This document shows, piece after piece, positions 4,507-63,431 of a stretch of 64,000 nt of DNA. Within the stretch, counting starts at the first letter, position 1; every line of letters begins with the position of its first letter. Both the position numbers and the translations under genes were made by a program. The notes beneath the pieces are model-generated. The model ran no database searches. It saw only the letters and a list, made by a program, of their open reading frames with translations, and was not told the DNA's origin. The stretch is from a virus. Location: IMG/VR virus record IMGVR_UViG_3300045988_080627. The stretch is one strand, 5' to 3'.

Positions 4507-5976
4507 TCATAATAGCATAGTTATATCGCTTCTAGTTCTAGACATACTTACATATTGTAATTGTCTAAGAGTCTCTTTATCTTTAGCTCTAAAGATATCT
4601 TTCATATCTATAAATACATTATCATAAGAAGACCCTTGAGAACGATGAGTAGTAATAGCATACCCGTATTTAAAAGTAGCTTTTCTTATACATCTACCAT
4701 CAGTAAATAGATCTTTAGATGTACAAAAACTTCCCATTAAAGTATAATATATTCCCCACTTCTTTTTTCTATCGTATCCTTGAGAATTTATTGCTTCAGT
4801 TCTTATAGTTTCTATAACTATAGCTAAATCTTCATTACATTCTTCTGGAGCTAATAGCGGAATTTCAAAAGAAGCATTGCTATATTCATCATATAGTTTA
4901 ACTAAATATCCTTTACAACTAGTATAATATGGAACTTTAATAATAGTAGGAGTAAATTCTTCCACTATATAATCCATAGAATTAGTTATTTCATAACCAT
5001 CTTTTTTGAAATTCTCATAAGCCATTAAAATTTCTCCTTTATGAAGAAAGTTATCATCATTCCACAAGAATTTATGAATAGCTTTATTATAGTTATTTAC
5101 ACGAGTATTAGTATAAGCTAGAATTTTAGTGTGTAATATATCTTTAGCTTCTATCTCGTGTTTAAATTCCAAAATTGCTTTTTTACAAAAATTTTCTAAA
5201 TTCGACTCTACAAAGAGACTTCCATCCTCACCTTCACAATTATTCCACTGATATATTGGAGACTCTCTAAGCGTTTGTAAAATGTCTTTAAGACCACTTT
5301 TTTCAGATTGTCTGTATATTTTAGTCAATCTAAATTGATGTTTACATCTAAAGACTTTTGATTGTTTATCTTCTTTTACTGGATTTAATTGAGCATAATC
5401 ATCACAAAAGATAATCATAGTACCCATTAAACTACACTTTTCTACTAATAAATCATATAAATCACTACTTACCATAGACGCTTCATCACAAATGATAATT
5501 CCGTCATATGGTATAGACATTCTTTTATCATCATTAGCAAAGAATCTTAATTCTCTAATATCCAGTTTAAGAATATCTACCTTAGGAGATAATGCTAGCA
5601 TACTATGAAGAGTAGTTGCATCATAGTTATTATACTTTTTAAGTACTAAAGCTGCTTTGTGGGTAGGAGCACATAACTTAACTGGGAAGCCTTTAGTATT
5701 TATCCACTCTAAAAGAAAGCTTATTGTAAGGCTTTTTCCTGTTCCAGCACTTCCCCCTAAATTTATAGGATTTAAAAAGTCTTTTTGTTTGAAATTATCT
5801 AATATAATATCAACTATATCGTGCAATACTTGTAATTGCTCTTCTCCTAATGTTATTTGTTTTTCTTCTTCAATAAATCTTAACCAATTATTTCCTTTTA
5901 CAAAAGGATTATCTATCATATTAGGTCTTTCTGGAGACCCATCGAAATTATCTATATAAATAAATTCATCACTCAT
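4507..5976 (-). CDS. SF1B Dda/RecD-like DNA helicase
   Basis: Walker A GSAGTGKS, motif CAPTHKAA, and motif VI-like ITTHRSQGSSYDNVFID. Confidence 0.7.
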   Translation of the reverse strand: MSDEFIYIDNFDGSPERPNMIDNPFVKGNNWLRFIEEEKQITLGEEQLQVLHDIVDIILDNFKQKDFLNPINLGGSAGTGKSLTISFLLEWINTKGFPVKLCAPTHKAALVLKKYNNYDATTLHSMLALSPKVDILKLDIRELRFFANDDKRMSIPYDGIIICDEASMVSSDLYDLLVEKCSLMGTMIIFCDDYAQLNPVKEDKQSKVFRCKHQFRLTKIYRQSEKSGLKDILQTLRESPIYQWNNCEGEDGSLFVESNLENFCKKAILEFKHEIEAKDILHTKILAYTNTRVNNYNKAIHKFLWNDDNFLHKGEILMAYENFKKDGYEITNSMDYIVEEFTPTIIKVPYYTSCKGYLVKLYDEYSNASFEIPLLAPEECNEDLAIVIETIRTEAINSQGYDRKKKWGIYYTLMGSFCTSKDLFTDGRCIRKATFKYGYAITTHRSQGSSYDNVFIDMKDIFRAKDKETLRQLQYVSMSRTRSDITMLL

Positions 5977-9956: not shown

Positions 9957-10457
9957 TTATTCAGCCTCCTTCCAAAATATATTAGTACACCATGTCATTA
10001 TATGGGTTTTTCTATCTATCTTATAAAATTTTTGATTAGTATTTGGATTATTTAATGGTCCAAATTGTTTTATATAAGGACCCAGCTTAAGATAATCAAA
10101 ATTATCAAGATCTATAACTTCATCAGCTAGTGTTTGTCTACCGCTATACCATCCAATATGTAATTCAGGATAATTTTCTCTAACCCATTTAGCTAATTTA
10201 TTTACTTCCTTTGGATCAGAGTCTCCTCCCATAAATCCTACTAATGTAATTCCTTTATTAGATTCAATTAATCCTTGGAGTCGTTCCAAGGATAATATTT
10301 CTCCAATATCTTTTGACAAATAAGGTGAGTGGCAACCATCGCAGAAACAATTGCAACCACTGATGTTAATACACAGAGAGACTTCATTAGGAAATTCTGC
10401 AAAAGTAACAGCTGTATCAACATATTTAAGCATAGAACTCCTTAATTTTGTTCTCAA
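9957..10457 (-). CDS. nrdG: anaerobic ribonucleotide reductase activating protein (radical SAM)
   Basis: CNCFCDGC is the CxxxCxxC radical-SAM cluster motif. The gene lies immediately downstream of nrdD and a thioredoxin-like gene. Confidence 0.75.
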   Translation of the reverse strand: MRTKLRSSMLKYVDTAVTFAEFPNEVSLCINISGCNCFCDGCHSPYLSKDIGEILSLERLQGLIESNKGITLVGFMGGDSDPKEVNKLAKWVRENYPELHIGWYSGRQTLADEVIDLDNFDYLKLGPYIKQFGPLNNPNTNQKFYKIDRKTHIMTWCTNIFWKEAE

Positions 10458-10689
10458 GCATATCGGCAGTTAAAACTCCAGAAGTTCTTCCTACTTCTAT
10501 ATCATCTTTTATAAATACAAGAGTTGGAAGATTTCTAATATTATATTTAAGAGTAGTTTCTTCCTCTGTTTCTATGTCTACTGTAGTTAAAGTAATATCA
10601 GTATGATTTTCTAATACTCTTTTTAAAATAGGTGCTAAAGCTTTACATTGTCCACACCACTCTGCTTCAAATTTTAATATTTTTTTCAT
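10426..10689 (-). CDS. thioredoxin/glutaredoxin-like redoxin
   Basis: WCGQCK active-site motif in an 87-aa protein. Its start codon overlaps the inferred nrdD exon 2 stop (ATGA). Confidence 0.6.
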   Translation of the reverse strand: MKKILKFEAEWCGQCKALAPILKRVLENHTDITLTTVDIETEEETTLKYNIRNLPTLVFIKDDIEVGRTSGVLTADMLENKIKEFYA

Positions 10690-10786
10690 TGTGCTAATTC
10701 TATATTAATTTCTAATTCATTCTTTCTACTTCTAGTACTACCTTCTAGTTGTCTAGCAGCACTCCAGTTAGAAATTTTTGTTAAAT
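10686..10786 (-). CDS. nrdD: nrdD exon 2 (inferred)
   Basis: Joining exon 1 (...ggg t) to 10786 (at tta aca...) gives RIIGYLTKISNWSAARQLEGSTRSRKNELEINIELAQ*. This restores the RxxGY glycyl-radical motif and a C-terminal tail similar in flavour to the E. coli NrdD tail (GYLG...NAGKQEE), as recalled from memory. Exon 1 ends in U and the intron ends in G. Confidence 0.65.
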
Positions 10787-11851
10787 CCTTTTATACCCTC
10801 TCTTTCGAGATATTTAATTTATTAATAACATATTCTTTTATTTCAGCTTTACGTTTCTCTGAAATTTTATCAATATAAGAATTATACAGAGCATCATTAG
10901 CTTCATTCCGAAAATTTTTTAATACTAATTTTTCACAAAGATACCTTTGATAAACGGCTTCTTCTTTTAAGTCTCTATTCATTAAATAATAACGTTGTTT
11001 TTGAAAAGTAAAATCAGTTTTCCACCTATTTCGTTTTTTATCAAAAGATACACCTCGAATACCCGAAGTATTATTAGATTTCTTTTGTAGGTTTAACATA
11101 TTTTCTTGGATAGTTACTTCTCTAAGATTACATTTTCTATTATCATGAGTATCTCCACTAATATGATCAACTTGTTTATCAGTAGGAAGTACCAACCTAT
11201 GAAAATAGATACGTTCTTTTTTCTGGTTTCCTGTAAATAAATAAGGTTTATTATTTTTATAAACAGTTCTCCATTTATGACCCTTTAACTTTGGAACATC
11301 ATCTATATCTAGAATAAATGTTTCCATAATATTTCCATGAGAATCGTAAGTATCTATTTCCGCAAAATTATCTTTTAATCTAATTTCATTATCATCAAAT
11401 ACTCCTCTTGAATTAGTATCTTTAAATTCCCCCAAATCTTCTAAATTGTTCTCTATGTTTTTCACATAGTATTTTTCCAGAAAGTTTATTAAAACTAACT
11501 TTTTTAAATTTTGATGATACTCCACATACTTCACAAAAGCGTTCTTCTGTTATTTTTCTCATATTGTTAAATAATTATGTTAATAATAAGGGAGTGGACT
11601 ATACCATCAACCCATAGGTTGCGCATTGGTAGTCTCTGAGACCCATAAATTTTATATATGTTAAGTATATACAAGACTTGTATAAATTCTAACACTTTAA
11701 CATAAATTAACAATTTATATGTCTGCTGATTGCCCAATCCTAAGACTTATTCATCCTTGAAAATATTTCAAGTATACTTAGGCTCTAAGGGGTTTCCAGC
11801 ATATTCTGCGTTTACTACATAATATTACTATTATGTGGGGCGTTTACGTTC
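10787..11851 (-). mobile_element. group I intron in nrdD (phage T4 nrdD/sunY-like architecture; ORF 3' of core)
   Basis: Minus-strand core elements are present: R-like ggtCTCAGAGACTAccaatgcg (about 11626-11640), S-like ggTATAGTCCactcc (about 11596-11603), and P/Q-like gctggaaacc / caatcagcagac. The terminal G at 10787 abuts exon 2. The HNH ORF occupies the 3' portion. Confidence 0.7.
10791..11534 (-). CDS. intron-encoded HNH homing endonuclease (frameshifted relative to N-terminal zinc-finger segment)
   Basis: Contains the HNH motif DHISGDTHDNRKCNLREVT. A 46-aa alternative-frame ORF (11422..11562) encodes CEVCG...GKILCEKHREQFRRFG, which is the N-terminal zinc-binding motif of this HNH family. 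A 1-nt length change in the C5 run at 11429-11433 (plus strand) would fuse the two frames. Confidence 0.6.
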   Translation of the reverse strand: MKYVEYHQNLKKLVLINFLEKYYVKNIENNLEDLGEFKDTNSRGVFDDNEIRLKDNFAEIDTYDSHGNIMETFILDIDDVPKLKGHKWRTVYKNNKPYLFTGNQKKERIYFHRLVLPTDKQVDHISGDTHDNRKCNLREVTIQENMLNLQKKSNNTSGIRGVSFDKKRNRWKTDFTFQKQRYYLMNRDLKEEAVYQRYLCEKLVLKNFRNEANDALYNSYIDKISEKRKAEIKEYVINKLNISKERV

Positions 11852-13970
11852 ACCCAATAATTCTATCCCATAGACTTACATGAGTACTACCACATTTAGG
11901 ACATTTACTAAATGGCTGTTTTGCTATAAAATGGCACTCTTCACATTCACAATTAGGAATATTAAAAGTAGCATATTTACAACCCACTTTAGCCATAAAT
12001 TTAAGTAAATACTCATATTGTTTCTGACTCAAATGTTCAGATAAATTAAGATGGCAAGCAGAACCTCCATCTAATTCATCAGCGGCGAACTCAGAACTAT
12101 GAAGTATAATTTTATCAAGTATACTTATATGTGTATCGTTAGGTTTAAATATATAACTGGCATATAGATTAGTATCTGTAGGAATCCAATAACCATCAGC
12201 TTTATCTCTATTGTAAAGTTTTACTGAAGCGCTTTCTGCAGGAACTTGCTCTGTATTAAATTGAGCTGTTTTAGTTTTATGTTTCTTATTCTGCTCTTTT
12301 ATAGTACTAAATATTAATCTACAAAATGTTTTATAATAAATATTATTATTACATTCCATTCCTAAGTATTCAGCAGCCTGATTTAAGCCATTAATTCCAA
12401 TAGTTAAATACTGCTTATCAAGATTAATAAAACCAGCATCATAAGCAGCATATAAATGATGGTCTTTGCACCAATGCATTAAGTCGTTATAAGCATATTG
12501 ATACAAATAAACTCTTTCAAGAATATTTTCTATATATTTCTTAATTCCTTCTTGGAAATCTTTATGTGTAATCCAATCTACTGGGAAACAACATTTATTT
12601 GTATTAACATCAATATGGTCTCTATAATCAGACCAAGTATGTTGCCAATCTTGAATAATTCTGTTTAAATTAAGAGTGATGACATTCTTACTACCAGTCA
12701 TTACACCTATTTGACCATTAGTAGTATTAAATGTATTTTCTTGTACTGCATTTTGTAAACGACAACATGAACTTAGACTATCTACACTACGAGACAGATA
12801 AGTAAAGAAAGAATTTCCTTGAGCATATTCATTGCATATAAAATGGAAAGTATCTAAATCTTTAAAATTATCTTCCTTATCTGTTAAACAAGCATAACTA
12901 CATACAGGAAATGTTAAAATACATTTTAATCTTTCTTGGTTTAACCAGTGTAAATAACGTCTTTGTAACCAATTAGTAGAATTCCATTCTGGCTTTGTTC
13001 CATCTGGAAATACAAATTCTCCAAACATACCTTCAAAGAAATATTTATCGAAGAATGAAAAATTTGTAAATGGAGACTGCATTCCTCTAGCTCCTGCTAT
13101 TTGATTAATGGAGTAAGTTACCTGTTGAAAATATTGATCAATTTGACTACCAATAGTCTTTTGTTTTATACAGTAATCTGTAGTTATCTTTGCACTTGGT
13201 TTAAGATAATAATTATTTCCCCATTCTTTTCTACAGAAATAATCCATATACATTAGAAACTCAGGAGTAGCTACTGCTCCTTTAATTTCAGAGGCTAATG
13301 CAAAGTTTAGATTTACATAAATACCACAAAATGAATCTAGATTCTTTGGAACGGCTGATTTACCTCCTAATTTTTCTAATCCAGACAACAAGAAAGGATA
13401 CATAGAAGCTGCCATACAATATGGTTCTCCTACTTGAGAAGATGAATCGTGAGGATACAAAATAGTTTTAAAATCATTCCTCATAACTTTTATATTAAAG
13501 TTAGGATCTCTCTTCTTTACAAAACTTTCCCACCATTCTGTATTAGTAAGTTTATTATCGACTTTATGTATTTCAGCATTTAATACTCCAATGCCTTTAG
13601 TTCCTACATTACTATTATCATCAATAGTAGCATTAGCAGTATTATCAGACTTTACAAAATTATGAATAAATTCAATATCCCTAGTAGCATGATTTCTAAT
13701 ATCTTCACGTTCTTTACGATATAGAATATATTTTTTAGCTACGTCGTAATATCCTAAATCCATTAAGAGTTCTTCAATTTGGTCTTGAATATTCTCAATA
13801 GATTGATCTTCAGTTTCTACTACAGAATTAGTTATCTCAGTAACTGCTCTGTAAATATCTTCGTCTATTGTTCTACTAGAATTTTGGGTAATTCCAAAAG
13901 CCTTTAATACAGCATCTCTAATTTTGTTTCTGTTAAACTCTTCTTTACTCCCGTCTCTTTTTATTACCAT
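11852..13970 (-). CDS. nrdD: anaerobic ribonucleoside-triphosphate reductase, exon 1
   Basis: N-terminal ATP-cone MVIKRDGSKEEFNRNKIRDAV and C-terminal zinc ribbon CECEECH...CPKCGS. The ORF stops right after ...WDRIIG, lacking the glycyl-radical Y. The inferred 5' splice site follows the U at 11852. Confidence 0.8.
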
Positions 13971-14070: not shown

Positions 14071-15402
14071 TTAAATTTTTGTTTCATCTAAAAAAGAGAG
14101 TGTATCTATTATTTTAGAATTAGAATAATTATAAGGAATTTCTATCAATTCTAATTTTCCCGGATGTTTACTACATATTTTTCTTAATAAATTATCTCTT
14201 CTAATTTGTTTTTGAAAATCTTCTTGGCTATTATGAAAAAATGGGATAAATTCATAATGTTGTTTTCCATTATATTCTATTATATAAATACAATCATTAT
14301 GTTTCACTATGAAATCTACTATAATTTTATTAGAATTGCGTGCTATTTCTTTAGTCTTTATCTCATATTGAAATTTATATTTACAATGATATTTATTTAA
14401 TAAATTTTTTATAAATAATTCTCCTTTACTAGGCTCTATTTGTTCTCTAGCACATTCAGGGCATTTACACCCCTTTAAATGATTGCCTGGGGATTGCTCA
14501 AATTTACCATGTTTTGGACAAATAATAGTAATTGGAGTTTTATAATTTATATAATTAACTTCGTTGTAATCATATTTCCAACCATGAACTTCTCTAGCTT
14601 TTCTTATAAAATCTTCTTTAGTTAAAGTATAAGATTCTATAGCACAATCTGGACAATATCCATGATGGTATATTAAAGTTGATGCTAGTATGCTAAAATC
14701 TCCATGTTTTGGACAAGTTAAAATTACTGAATTAGTTATTCCAGTATAAACAGTTTTATTTGTAGTATATTCGGGATGAATTTTTTCACATTCTTTAATA
14801 AATTCATCTTGCGTAAATCTGAAAGTATTAGTACATTTAGGACATCCATTTTTACAATTTAAATGCTGGTAAGGTAACTACCAAAATTCTCCATGTTCAG
14901 GGCATATAATACAAACTTTTTCCCTACTACCTTTAAAATCTACTTTTGAATAATCAAATTTATAATTATATTTTTCATTAGCAGCTTTTACAAAATCCTC
15001 TTTGGATCTAATTACTTTAAAATCTTTACTTTTTCCTCGACATTCCTTGCAAGCACATTGTCCTTTTAAATGATTACTAACTGTTTGCCAAAACTCGCCA
15101 TGTTCAGGACATATGATACACACTTTATTATTAGTACCCGTATAAACTACTTTGGAATAATCATATTTATTATTCCAAATTTTATTTGCTTTTCGTATAA
15201 AGGTATCTAAATCAAATTTTTTACCTGAACAAATAGCACAGCCTCGTCCCTATAAATGTGAATTTGCTTCTTGTACAAACACTCCATGAATAGGACATAT
15301 TATCTTAACTTTATCTTTTGATCTAGAAACTTCTACTAGGGAATAATCATACTTATTTCCATGAATTTCTTGAGCTTTTTTAATAAAATATTCTTTATTC
15401 AT
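14071..15402 (-). CDS. zinc-ribbon repeat protein with C-terminal DUF559/Vsr-like endonuclease domain; contains two in-frame TAG codons
   Basis: One 444-codon frame (ATG 15402 to TAA 14071) carries five tandem modules of about 63 aa (KYDYSKV...IICPxHGxFxQxxxxHLxGxxCxxC). The C-terminus VDFIVKHNDCIYIIEYNGKQHYEF...RRDNLLRKICSKHPGKLELIEIPY matches the DUF559/Vsr-like PD-(D/E)xK pattern. In-frame TAG codons at 15250..15252 and 14878..14880 split the ORF track into 14071..14307 and 14878..15123. Confidence 0.55.
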
Positions 15403-61685: not shown

Positions 61686-62390
61686 ACACTATTCTTACTT
61701 TCTTACAAAAATCCTTATTTTTTTTAAACCCCAGGGGGCTATATAAAATCTTCCATAAAAAATTTTAAAATTTTAATTTAAAAATCTTAGAATATTAACT
61801 TTTACAAAAATTAACTTTTAATATTCCTTACCTCAACTATATTACTCGTGTAATCAAAAAATAAATATTAAATGAATAAAGAACAACTAATACAAAGTAT
61901 TAAAGACCTTCCTGATTAGTATAATATAAATTTATAGGTTATTGATAATGTAATTCATATAACCATGACTAAAAAGGTAGATGAATTTGAAGAATATTGT
62001 AGTAAATTAGATGATGAAACATTTAATAATGCTTGTCTAATATTTGGAATTATTTCAGATATATCTTTAGAAGATTTTTCTTCTAATTTATATAAACCTG
62101 AATATAAAAAATATAAACAAGAATTTAAACGTATAGTAGAATTTTTAAATGATAGAAACATTACGAAAAATTAATAATATAGTTCCTAATCTTACAATAT
62201 CGCAATTATTAGAAATTATAAATATTATTAATGAACCTAATTTAATTATAGATAATATAGGAAAAGAAGTACCTTATAATGGACGTATGACAATAGATGC
62301 CGATGATATTAGAAGTAATATTACTAATATAGGTACTTATCGATAAAGATATTATTCTCCTATGGTGTAATGGTTAGCACAGAAGACTCT

Positions 62391-63393
62391 TAAAAATTTT
62401 AAAGTATGGAAAATAAAATTTATAAACTTACGGATAAAGAGTTTTCAGACTTAGTTAAGTCAAGTCTGAATATCTCAGAAGTTTTATTTAAACTTGGATA
62501 TACTACTGTTGGAAACAGTTGGGGATATTCACAAGTTAAACAAAGAATGCAAGATTTAAATTTATCAGGTAAAGATTTTAGAGGCAAATCAGCTATAGCC
62601 GACTGTAATGAAAAGAAAGAAATAGATGCTTCTAAATTATTATGTGAAAATTCAAAACACGCACGTAATATATTAAGAAGTTATATATTAAGAAATAAAT
62701 TACTTCCTTATACATGTGCAATATGTGGAATTACAGAATGGCAGGGTAAAACTTTATCTCTAGAATTAGACCATATTAATGGTATAAATAATGATAATAG
62801 AATAGAAAATCTAAGATTTTTATGTCCTAATTGTCATAGTCAAACCACTACTTATGGTGCTAAAAATAAGCAAAAAGTAGAATCTAAATACGAGCTTTCT
62901 GATGAATTAAAGAATTTAATTATTAGTTCTTATATAGAATTAAAAAATCAAAAGAAAGTTGCTGATAAATATAATTTAAATCATAAAGCAGTAAAACAAG
63001 TTTTATCAGAAGCTGGATTAACTAAACAAAATCAAAAGTATGTTATACAATATGATTCTTCTCATAATGAAATAAGAAGATTTGGATGTATAGCGGAATG
63101 TTGTCAATGGTTAATGGATAATAATTTAGTAACTACTAAATTAATGAAAACTTGTAGAGCAACTCTAAATAGAAATATTGGTATTCTTTGGAAAAATTAT
63201 TACTTTGAAATATTGGATGCTTAAAGGATAATCCATAATCTTTAAGTAGAATCTCTTTTAATCGACTTGGAAGCGTATATACTTAGTATAAAGTGACAGG
63301 GCGCAAGTTTAAATACAGCGTGAACGACTAAATAAAGAGACTGGTCTTAGGACTGGATGTGATAGTCTAATCCTCTACAGAGGTGTTAAAATG
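62391..63393 (+). mobile_element. group I intron in tRNA anticodon loop, encoding an HNH endonuclease
   Basis: 3' core after the ORF: R-like gaacGACTAaa, P8-like hairpin, S-like gtgaTAGTCtaatcc, P9 hairpin cctct-acag-agagg, terminal ttaaaatG. A possible internal guide aaagagt (62436) is complementary to the exon end gactct. Confidence 0.55.
62406..63224 (+). CDS. intron-encoded HNH homing endonuclease
   Basis: CAICGITEWQGKTLSLELDHINGINNDNRIENLRFLCPNCHSQT is an HNH motif with flanking zinc-binding cysteines. Confidence 0.7.
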   Translation: MENKIYKLTDKEFSDLVKSSLNISEVLFKLGYTTVGNSWGYSQVKQRMQDLNLSGKDFRGKSAIADCNEKKEIDASKLLCENSKHARNILRSYILRNKLLPYTCAICGITEWQGKTLSLELDHINGINNDNRIENLRFLCPNCHSQTTTYGAKNKQKVESKYELSDELKNLIISSYIELKNQKKVADKYNLNHKAVKQVLSEAGLTKQNQKYVIQYDSSHNEIRRFGCIAECCQWLMDNNLVTTKLMKTCRATLNRNIGILWKNYYFEILDA

Positions 63394-63431
63394 AAATCTT
63401 TTAGTCAGGGTTCGAATCCTTGTGGGAGAAC

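Follow-up and report, generated by a model that had tools for sequence, protein, structure and literature searches.

The stretch of DNA analysed here, 64,000 nucleotides (nt) of the IMG/VR virus record IMGVR_UViG_3300045988_080627, is called the window below. In the window, the ribonucleotide reductase gene nrdD is interrupted by an insert, and the insert and both nrdD exons lie on the minus strand. Exon 1 (11852..13970, -) encodes the ATP-cone, the NrdD barrel and the Zn ribbon in 706 codons, followed by a T, the first base of a Tyr codon. The corresponding open reading frame (ORF), 11850..13970 including the stop codon, is unbroken over 706 amino acids and has the C-terminus ...SLWDRIIG (...CPKCGSTHVSLWDRIIG). 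In this unspliced frame, Pfam finds the ATP-cone (1.4e-20) and NRDD (2e-69); the NRDD match scores 235.2 bits and covers profile positions 31-541 of 562. The stop codon TGA straddles the junction: its T (11852) is the last base of the exon, and its GA opens the insert. The insert itself (10787..11851, -) is 1065 nt long and has G as its last base. Exon 2 (10686..10786, -; 101 nt) starts 1065 nt past exon 1 and reads AT TTA ACA AAA ATT TCT AAC TGG... from 10786 downwards, so that together with the T of exon 1 it encodes YLTKISNWSAARQLEGSTRSRKNELEINIELAQ*. It is in the same frame as the stop codon of an HNH ORF within the insert, has no start codon of its own and opens mid-codon. The TGA at its end overlaps the ATG of a thioredoxin gene (ATGA).

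Joining the exons (T + AT) yields RIIGYLTKISNW (RIIGYLTKISNWSAARQLEG...; ...DRIIGYLTKISNWSAARQLEGSTRSRKNELEINIELAQ) and a spliced product of 739 amino acids; the predicted letters at the spliced junction are ...ATTATTGGGT-ATTTAACAAAA... When the exons were spliced in silico, the Pfam NRDD score rose from 235.2 to 257.9 bits (2.6e-76) and the match extended over profile positions 31-560 of 562, so that positions 542-560 were regained. The best solved relative, the NrdD of T. maritima (4COI), aligns across the junction, with DRIIGYLTKISNWSAAR opposite its residues 617-634. In this alignment, G706 of the window NrdD stands opposite Gly621, the published glycyl-radical site of the T. maritima enzyme (PMC4493059). 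The spliced NrdD has the NRDD barrel, a Zn ribbon (CECEEC...CPKC) upstream of RIIGY, and the RxxGY radical loop. Since the insert enters one base past the Gly codon, it splits the Tyr codon, number 707 (GGG T|AT). The spliced exons very probably recreate the Tyr codon and a 33-residue C-terminal tail, which would place G706 in a complete RIIGY loop.

An earlier reading of the letters, here called the original prediction, had described an NrdD frame that stops after ...WDRIIG, a 1065-nt insert followed by a second exon in frame with the HNH stop, and a join (exon 1 ending in U, the intron in G) that restores RxxGY and should align with other NrdD proteins. All of this agrees with our analysis. 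It had also placed the break exactly at the glycyl-radical codon; the RxxG|Y motif is indeed interrupted, but the codon that is split is that of Tyr and not that of Gly.

Predicted fold of the insert RNA

The helices of the insert were folded by hand on the window RNA. For comparison, we gathered relatives by two pattern scans of viral contigs, one with the P/Q motifs and the other with the R/S motifs. It turned out that 29 distinct cores share the arrangement GACUACCAA-P3'-P8-GGUAUAGUC without P7.1/P7.2, and 28 of them entered the alignment from which the sequence counts below are taken.

The RNA begins with GAACGUAAAC and ends with ...AUAAAAGG (...GGGUAUAAAAGG), with AAAAGG|AU at the 3' splice site. 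As is typical of group I introns, the last four bases of exon 1, GGGU (11852-11855), can form helix P1 with GCCC (11838-11841), leaving a U•G pair at the splice site. In the relatives, this pair is UG in 26 of the 28 sequences, and two other P1 pairs show compensatory changes. The internal guide sequence (11838..11846, -) consists of this GCCC and of UAAA (11843-11846), which can pair with UUUA of exon 2 as P10. The insert therefore has both the P10 and the terminal guanosine (omega-G) of a group I intron. P2 is a hairpin (11817..11836, -) of the form ACAUAAUA-GUAA-UAUUAUGU with a GNRA loop, and double changes were found in all five of its inner pairs. The 5' strand of P3, CGCA (11807..11810, -), has its partner UGCG at 11622-11625.

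The P4-P5 part of the P4-P6 domain (11724..11801, -) comprises P4 (UGCUG/CAGCA, 11797-11801 x 11724-11728), P5 (CCC/GGG), P5a (CCUAAG/CUUAGG) and the P5b hairpin (11756-11772); the Rfam model RF00028 aligns the same P4/P5. P6 and its apical extension (11640..11723, -) start with the pairing of GAC (11721-11723) with GUC (11640-11642), and the P6 pairs vary between GC and AU and between GC and CG among the relatives. The P6 extension also contains a 57-nt hairpin (11644-11700, -) lying between 8-nt direct repeats, AAUUUAUG. It is precisely missing in three relatives (L001, L233 and L236). This precise absence, together with the flanking repeat, suggests an optional module gained or lost via repeat-mediated recombination.

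In the P7-P3'-P8 block (11596..11636, -), P3 and P7 cross, as in the group I pseudoknot. P7 is formed by G-(A)-GACUA (11630-11636) and UAGUCC (11596-11601), and only CCAA separates it from P3'. P8 is CAACC-UAUG-GGUUG (11608-11621), and the joining segment J8/7 is AUGGUA. The G-C pair beside the bulged base of P7, which belongs to the guanosine-binding site, is the same in all 28 sequences; the outer pair beyond the bulge is AU, GC or UA. The R element CUCAGAGACUA (about 11630-11640) and the S element UAUAGUCC (about 11596-11603), both named in the original prediction, were found in place, as were the P/Q elements AAUAUGCUGGAA and AAUCAGCAG.

The 5' strand of P9, CCCU (11589..11592, -), pairs across the ORF with AGGG (10796-10799); in the relatives P9 reads CCCU/AGGG or CCGU/ACGG. 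The 3' terminal ribozyme domain (10787..10809, -) consists of the P9a hairpin CUC-GAAA-GAG (10800-10809), the 3' strand of P9 and the tail UAUAAAAGG with the omega-G at 10787. In ORF-less relatives, whose introns end in ...GGGUAUAAAGG, P9a, a covarying stem of 3 base pairs (bp) with a GAAA loop, and the P9 3' strand lie 20-22 nt past P7'. The homologous P9/P9a module of the window (AAAUAUCUCGAAAGAGAGGGUAUAAAAGG) is found 790 nt past P7'. Thus, the ORF occupies the P9 loop.

The HNH gene in this loop is present as two fragments. The 5' fragment (11422..11562, -) encodes 46 amino acids, with an ATG start and a CxxC...CxxH zinc-finger-like N-terminus; the 3' fragment (10791..11534, -) encodes 247 amino acids in another frame, with the HNH_3 motif and an AP2-like DNA-binding region. 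The 5' fragment ends early because of an extra G in the run at 11429-11433. This run is G5 in the window and G4 in L050, a 98% identical gut contig, and it is the sole indel in 1265 nt. The ORF is uninterrupted in L050 and L017. The HNH motif is recognised by Pfam HNH_3 (1.7e-7, 31.2 bits, cut-off 24.8), while the AP2 segment (7.9e-4) is below the Pfam cut-off. With the repaired ORF as the query, PHROG 99 'HNH endonuclease' was matched at 1.2e-26; a search of solved structures with the HNH protein gave nothing useful. The intron-encoded HNH endonuclease of the original prediction is therefore borne out by homology to HNH_3 and PHROG 99, but in the window its reading frame is broken by the extra G. 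The last codons of the ORF (...NISKERV*) also encode P9a and the 3' strand of P9, and its stop codon TAA (10791-10793) is 4 nt from the 3' splice site.

Covariation and site occupancy in relatives

Covariation was determined on a MAFFT alignment of the 28 cores. A total of 35 pairs were counted; the outer three P2 pairs were left out because MAFFT set them one column out of register between sequences. Standard pairs were formed in 97.9% of the cells, compared to 80.1% with shuffled partners and 35-45% with slid partners. Changes on both sides were seen in 19 of the 35 pairs. The covariation score was 0.49, with 0.14 for shuffled partners (0 of 500 shuffles reached the observed value) and at most 0.10 for slid partners. 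P3 is paired in 100% of the sequences, all four of its pairs show double changes, and three of them occur as four pair types. Double changes were also found in four of the five P8 pairs. The core from P3 to P8 with the P3/P7 crossing is thus complete, and P5, P6, P7 and P8 all covary.

We also built a covariance model, R1. It is based on 22 introns from lineages other than that of the window, and neither the window nor its near-identical relatives nor L017 contributed to it. R1 matched the window at 11589-11848 (-) with 139.9 bits (E=6e-40), and scored 157.5 bits on the relative MT835492 and weakly, 22.5 bits, on the sunY intron of T4. Both this R1 score and the gain in NRDD coverage on splicing go well beyond chance. 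The P1-P8 covariation, this leave-lineage-out model and the protein alignment at the junction uphold the original prediction that the insert is a group I intron.

MT835492 (L001), from human faeces, is the closest GenBank relative and is 96% identical. Its insert lacks a 700-nt ORF segment (window 10874-11572) and the 57-nt hairpin. The ORF is deleted, but its last ~87 nt are kept, in MT835492, L233 and L236. To look at the site in other phages, we searched phage genomes by tblastn with the last 98 residues of the spliced NrdD. Many phage NrdD genes run uninterrupted through the junction, among them those of Lak-A1, Lak-C1, the crAss-like cr116_1 and IAS virus. In nine Lak-B megaphage records, the match ends exactly at the G of RIIG. 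The intron-less Lak-A1 reads GAC CGT ATC ATT GGA TAT TTA ACT AAA ATT TCG (site sequence GACCGTATCATTGGATATTTAACTAAAATTTCG), and Lak-B1 has a 245-nt ORF-less homologous insert between ATC GGG T and AT TTA ACT AAA ATT TCG.

Unannotated introns at the same site were thus found in the Prevotella megaphages Lak-B1 to Lak-B9, in MT835492 and in IMG/VR gut phage contigs (L050, L017, L121, L194, L218, L223, L169, L190 and others). They resemble the window intron in the insertion at RxxG|Y after the first Tyr base, in the core helices, in J8/7 and in the P9 module, and those with an ORF have the same HNH family in the P9 loop. The ORF-less relatives keep a structured RNA of 245-365 nt at this point. 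The Lak-B copies are 245 nt long and ORF-less, whereas the window copy has longer P5/P6 extensions, the 57-nt hairpin and the frameshifted ORF. At least 17 of the fetched NrdD loci carry a member of the intron family at G|Y, and their NrdD proteins are between 100% and about 25% identical to that of the window; four loci are uninterrupted there. Because intron motifs were used to fetch the loci, this count is not a frequency. The L190 exon ends in GGAU and the guide there is GUCC, which shows P1 following the exon.

Every nrdD-site copy examined has GA or AA as the first two bases of its intron, and these form a stop codon with the exon T. Translation into a phage intron interferes with splicing, according to work cited in PMC3984707. 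We infer a role for the junction stop codon in blocking ribosomes. It is conceivable, though unlikely, that the compact family, which has no P7.1/P7.2 and falls below the Rfam threshold, forms a lineage of its own that has specialised on the glycyl-radical site of NrdD and passes between unrelated groups of gut phages.

A second mobile element was noted in the nrdD of MT835492. At 4609-5666 (window ~12764), an in-frame LAGLIDADG intein, CFSKDT...YVIGSFLGDGSF...LITHN|C, sits between the two Cys of the NrdD motif SSCCRL; in the window, nothing is inserted at this point. With the intein at SSCCRL and the intron at G|Y, both of the most conserved nrdD motifs are targeted by mobile elements in the same lineage.

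Proposed splicing and homing, and alternative readings

Our preferred reading, which we hold with high confidence, is that the insert is a mobile group I intron with an HNH homing-endonuclease gene, located in nrdD. Once nrdD has been transcribed, a group I ribozyme would form from the 5' quarter of the intron (about 11589-11851) together with its last 23 nt. P1 would pair the exon end GGGU with the guide GCCC, and a guanosine bound in P7 would attack after the U at 11852. Then the terminal G (10787) would take the guanosine site, P10 would align exon 2, and the exons would be ligated. The in-frame TGA at the junction would keep ribosomes out of the core. The segment of roughly 770 nt in the P9 loop would be the homing-endonuclease gene. 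Where the HNH gene is intact, its product would cleave nrdD alleles that lack the intron, within the sequence coding for the conserved ...RI(I/V)GYL..., and repair would spread the intron. Cleavage of the intron-less allele has indirect support: very divergent NrdD genes carry an intron at this site, and empty alleles exist (Lak-A1 and cr116_1).

Several points weigh against this reading. The splicing of nrdD in the window is a prediction from sequence. P10 has only 4 bp, compared to 6 bp in Lak-B1. P4 and most of P7 do not vary among the compared sequences and carry no covariation information, because they were used as search patterns. The disrupted endonuclease gene makes the present-day mobility of the window copy doubtful, although the extra G at 11429-11433 could be an assembly error rather than a real frameshift. 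Because of the +1 frameshift in its HNH gene, the window copy is probably immobile, but it should still splice. Finally, RF00028 gives no match at its gathering score (50 bits) in the whole window, nor any at E<=10 in 10600-12000. When only 311 nt were searched, the model aligned over its full length to 11573-11861 and showed the same helices; the score of 25.1 bits (E=1.4e-4) is below the cut-off of 50. We do not read this miss as a refutation, because T4 sunY, the control, reaches 105 bits while the compact homologue of Lak-B1 is below the threshold as well, with 24 bits over P4-P6. The covariance-model search proposed in the original prediction found nothing with RF00028 at its threshold and a strong match with R1. 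The general Rfam model under-scores this intron family, and the group I core is present.

Of the other explanations, a decayed intron that no longer splices fares best. On this account, nrdD would be a pseudogene truncated before the Tyr of the radical loop. The frameshifted endonuclease gene shows that decay has begun, and the RF00028 score is only 25 bits. However, all core helices are intact, and the 1265-nt intron region with its flanks is 98% identical to L050, in which the ORF is intact. The low Rfam score is common to the whole family, the compact Lak-B1 included. No stop interrupts the 706 codons of exon 1, and exon 2 is conserved, still in frame and still overlapping the thioredoxin gene in ATGA. 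We therefore consider decay of the intron improbable.

Still less probable is a gene in pieces, that is, a free-standing HNH gene placed within nrdD and two NrdD polypeptides made without RNA splicing. NrdA of phage Aeh1 is a precedent for this organisation, and in the window an HNH gene does stand between two NrdD-coding pieces. But exon 2 has no start codon and begins inside a codon, and the structured RNA is kept at the same point in relatives that have no ORF; for these reasons the explanation was rejected. The covariation also backs a ribozyme fold, and half of the radical loop would need to come from a separate 33-residue peptide beginning with Tyr. An intein or another protein-level element has a negligible probability in spite of the intein elsewhere in the nrdD of MT835492: at Gly|Tyr the frame meets TGA at once and TAA two codons on, no intein motifs are found, and the internal ORF has a start codon of its own and uses a different frame, so the immediate stop codons after the junction led us to reject it.

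If the insert is a group I intron, as we prefer, unspliced mRNA would stop at the junction TGA and give a 706-amino-acid NrdD without the radical-loop Tyr and the tail. Splicing could in this way set the ratio of activatable to non-activatable subunits. That splicing efficiency gates the anaerobic supply of deoxynucleoside triphosphates during infection through this ratio in dimeric NrdD is a speculative idea, and we think it unlikely.

Without taking splicing into account, nrdD would be annotated as truncated or as a pseudogene, and the 33-codon exon 2 would be overlooked. The Lak-B genomes and many gut phage contigs are probably misannotated in the same way, since the family is missed by the standard Rfam model at its curated threshold. 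The locus illustrates clearly how a homing element can sit at the most conserved codons of an essential gene. All stages of the homing cycle (empty site, intact HNH, frameshifted HNH and deleted HNH) occur among close relatives. Our finding leaves the general knowledge of group I introns and of NrdD unchanged.

Neighbouring loci and comparison with known systems

Two genes follow nrdD downstream in the same orientation. The thioredoxin gene (10426..10689, -; Pfam Thioredoxin 1.5e-19) lies directly behind it, and a putative NrdG activase gene is found at 9957..10457 (-; Pfam Fer4_12 2.4e-5). The thioredoxin neighbour and the T. maritima-type NrdD as the best structural relative hint at a thioredoxin- rather than formate-dependent class III enzyme. 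Upstream of nrdD, at 14071-15402 (-), there are three short ORFs with repeated ...KVxIICPxHGxFxQ... modules and a C-terminal segment of the EYNGKQHY type. One of them matches Pfam DUF723 (4.7e-5). From their sequence, these ORFs look like a fragmented free-standing endonuclease-like gene.

Two other loci resemble introns. At 62356-63427 (+) of the window there is an apparent split transfer RNA (tRNA). Its 5' half (~62356-62390) has the acceptor, the D arm, the anticodon stem and CTCTTAA, and its 3' half is at 63391-63427. Between the halves are an HNH ORF (62406..63224, Pfam HNH 1.4e-5) and then ~165 nt with group-I-like P3, P4, P7 and P8. ARAGORN detects no tRNA in the genomic DNA at 62.4-63.4 kb, but almost all of the joins tried in silico give one. 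If the exon ends in U and the intron in G, the anticodon would be CUA (amber suppressor). R1 gives 13 bits on this insert (E=0.04); no P1 guide sequence was found for three possible 5' exon ends, and RF00028 has no match there. The second locus is in cr116_1 (L004, NC_055882), where R1 has a weak match at 509-702 (+; 20 bits, E=3.7e-4). It lies directly after a coding sequence annotated as 'endonuclease; mobile intron protein' and upstream of the uninterrupted nrdD; possibly this is a further group I intron, related in type.

The T4 sunY-type intron, which belongs to subgroup IA2, also lies in an nrdD gene, and the original prediction had called the window intron T4-sunY-like. The likeness is limited to the ORF placed 3' of the core, with a short 3' terminal domain after it. 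The T4 ORF follows P9 and P9.1, whereas that of the window is in the P9 loop. The T4 RNA has P7.1/P7.2 (UCCCUGAUGAAUGUAAGGGA, GGGUCAAGCGACCC) between P7 (GACUA) and P3', and the window intron has neither. The T4 enzyme I-TevII is annotated as GIY-YIG, unlike the HNH enzyme of the window, and RF00028 separates the two introns by score, as given above. In T4, the intron is annotated near codon 180 of 605 and not at Gly580, compared to codon 707 in the window; the original prediction was right that the sites differ and that the insertion is independent. A sunY-type assignment thus fails on the helices, the site and the enzyme.

Phage group I introns favour conserved genes such as those of ribonucleotide reductases (PMC3984707). 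A closer parallel is given by the Jug jumbo phages of the human gut, for which a 2026 study reports 2513 group I introns (PMC12880540). In 95 of 104 Jug genomes, nrdD is fragmented by introns, HNH genes and inteins, and metatranscriptome reads span the spliced nrdD junctions (PMC12880540). The Gly|Tyr site is not named in any paper that we found, and the text of PMC12880540 gives no insertion sites. Jug phages have about 27-30% G+C and an nrdD split by short group I introns together with HNH and intein elements. The window is similar to them: it has 29% G+C, and its relative MT835492 carries both an intron and an intein in nrdD. Introns in the nrdD of gut phages have already been published, and the window is a further case of a documented type of element.

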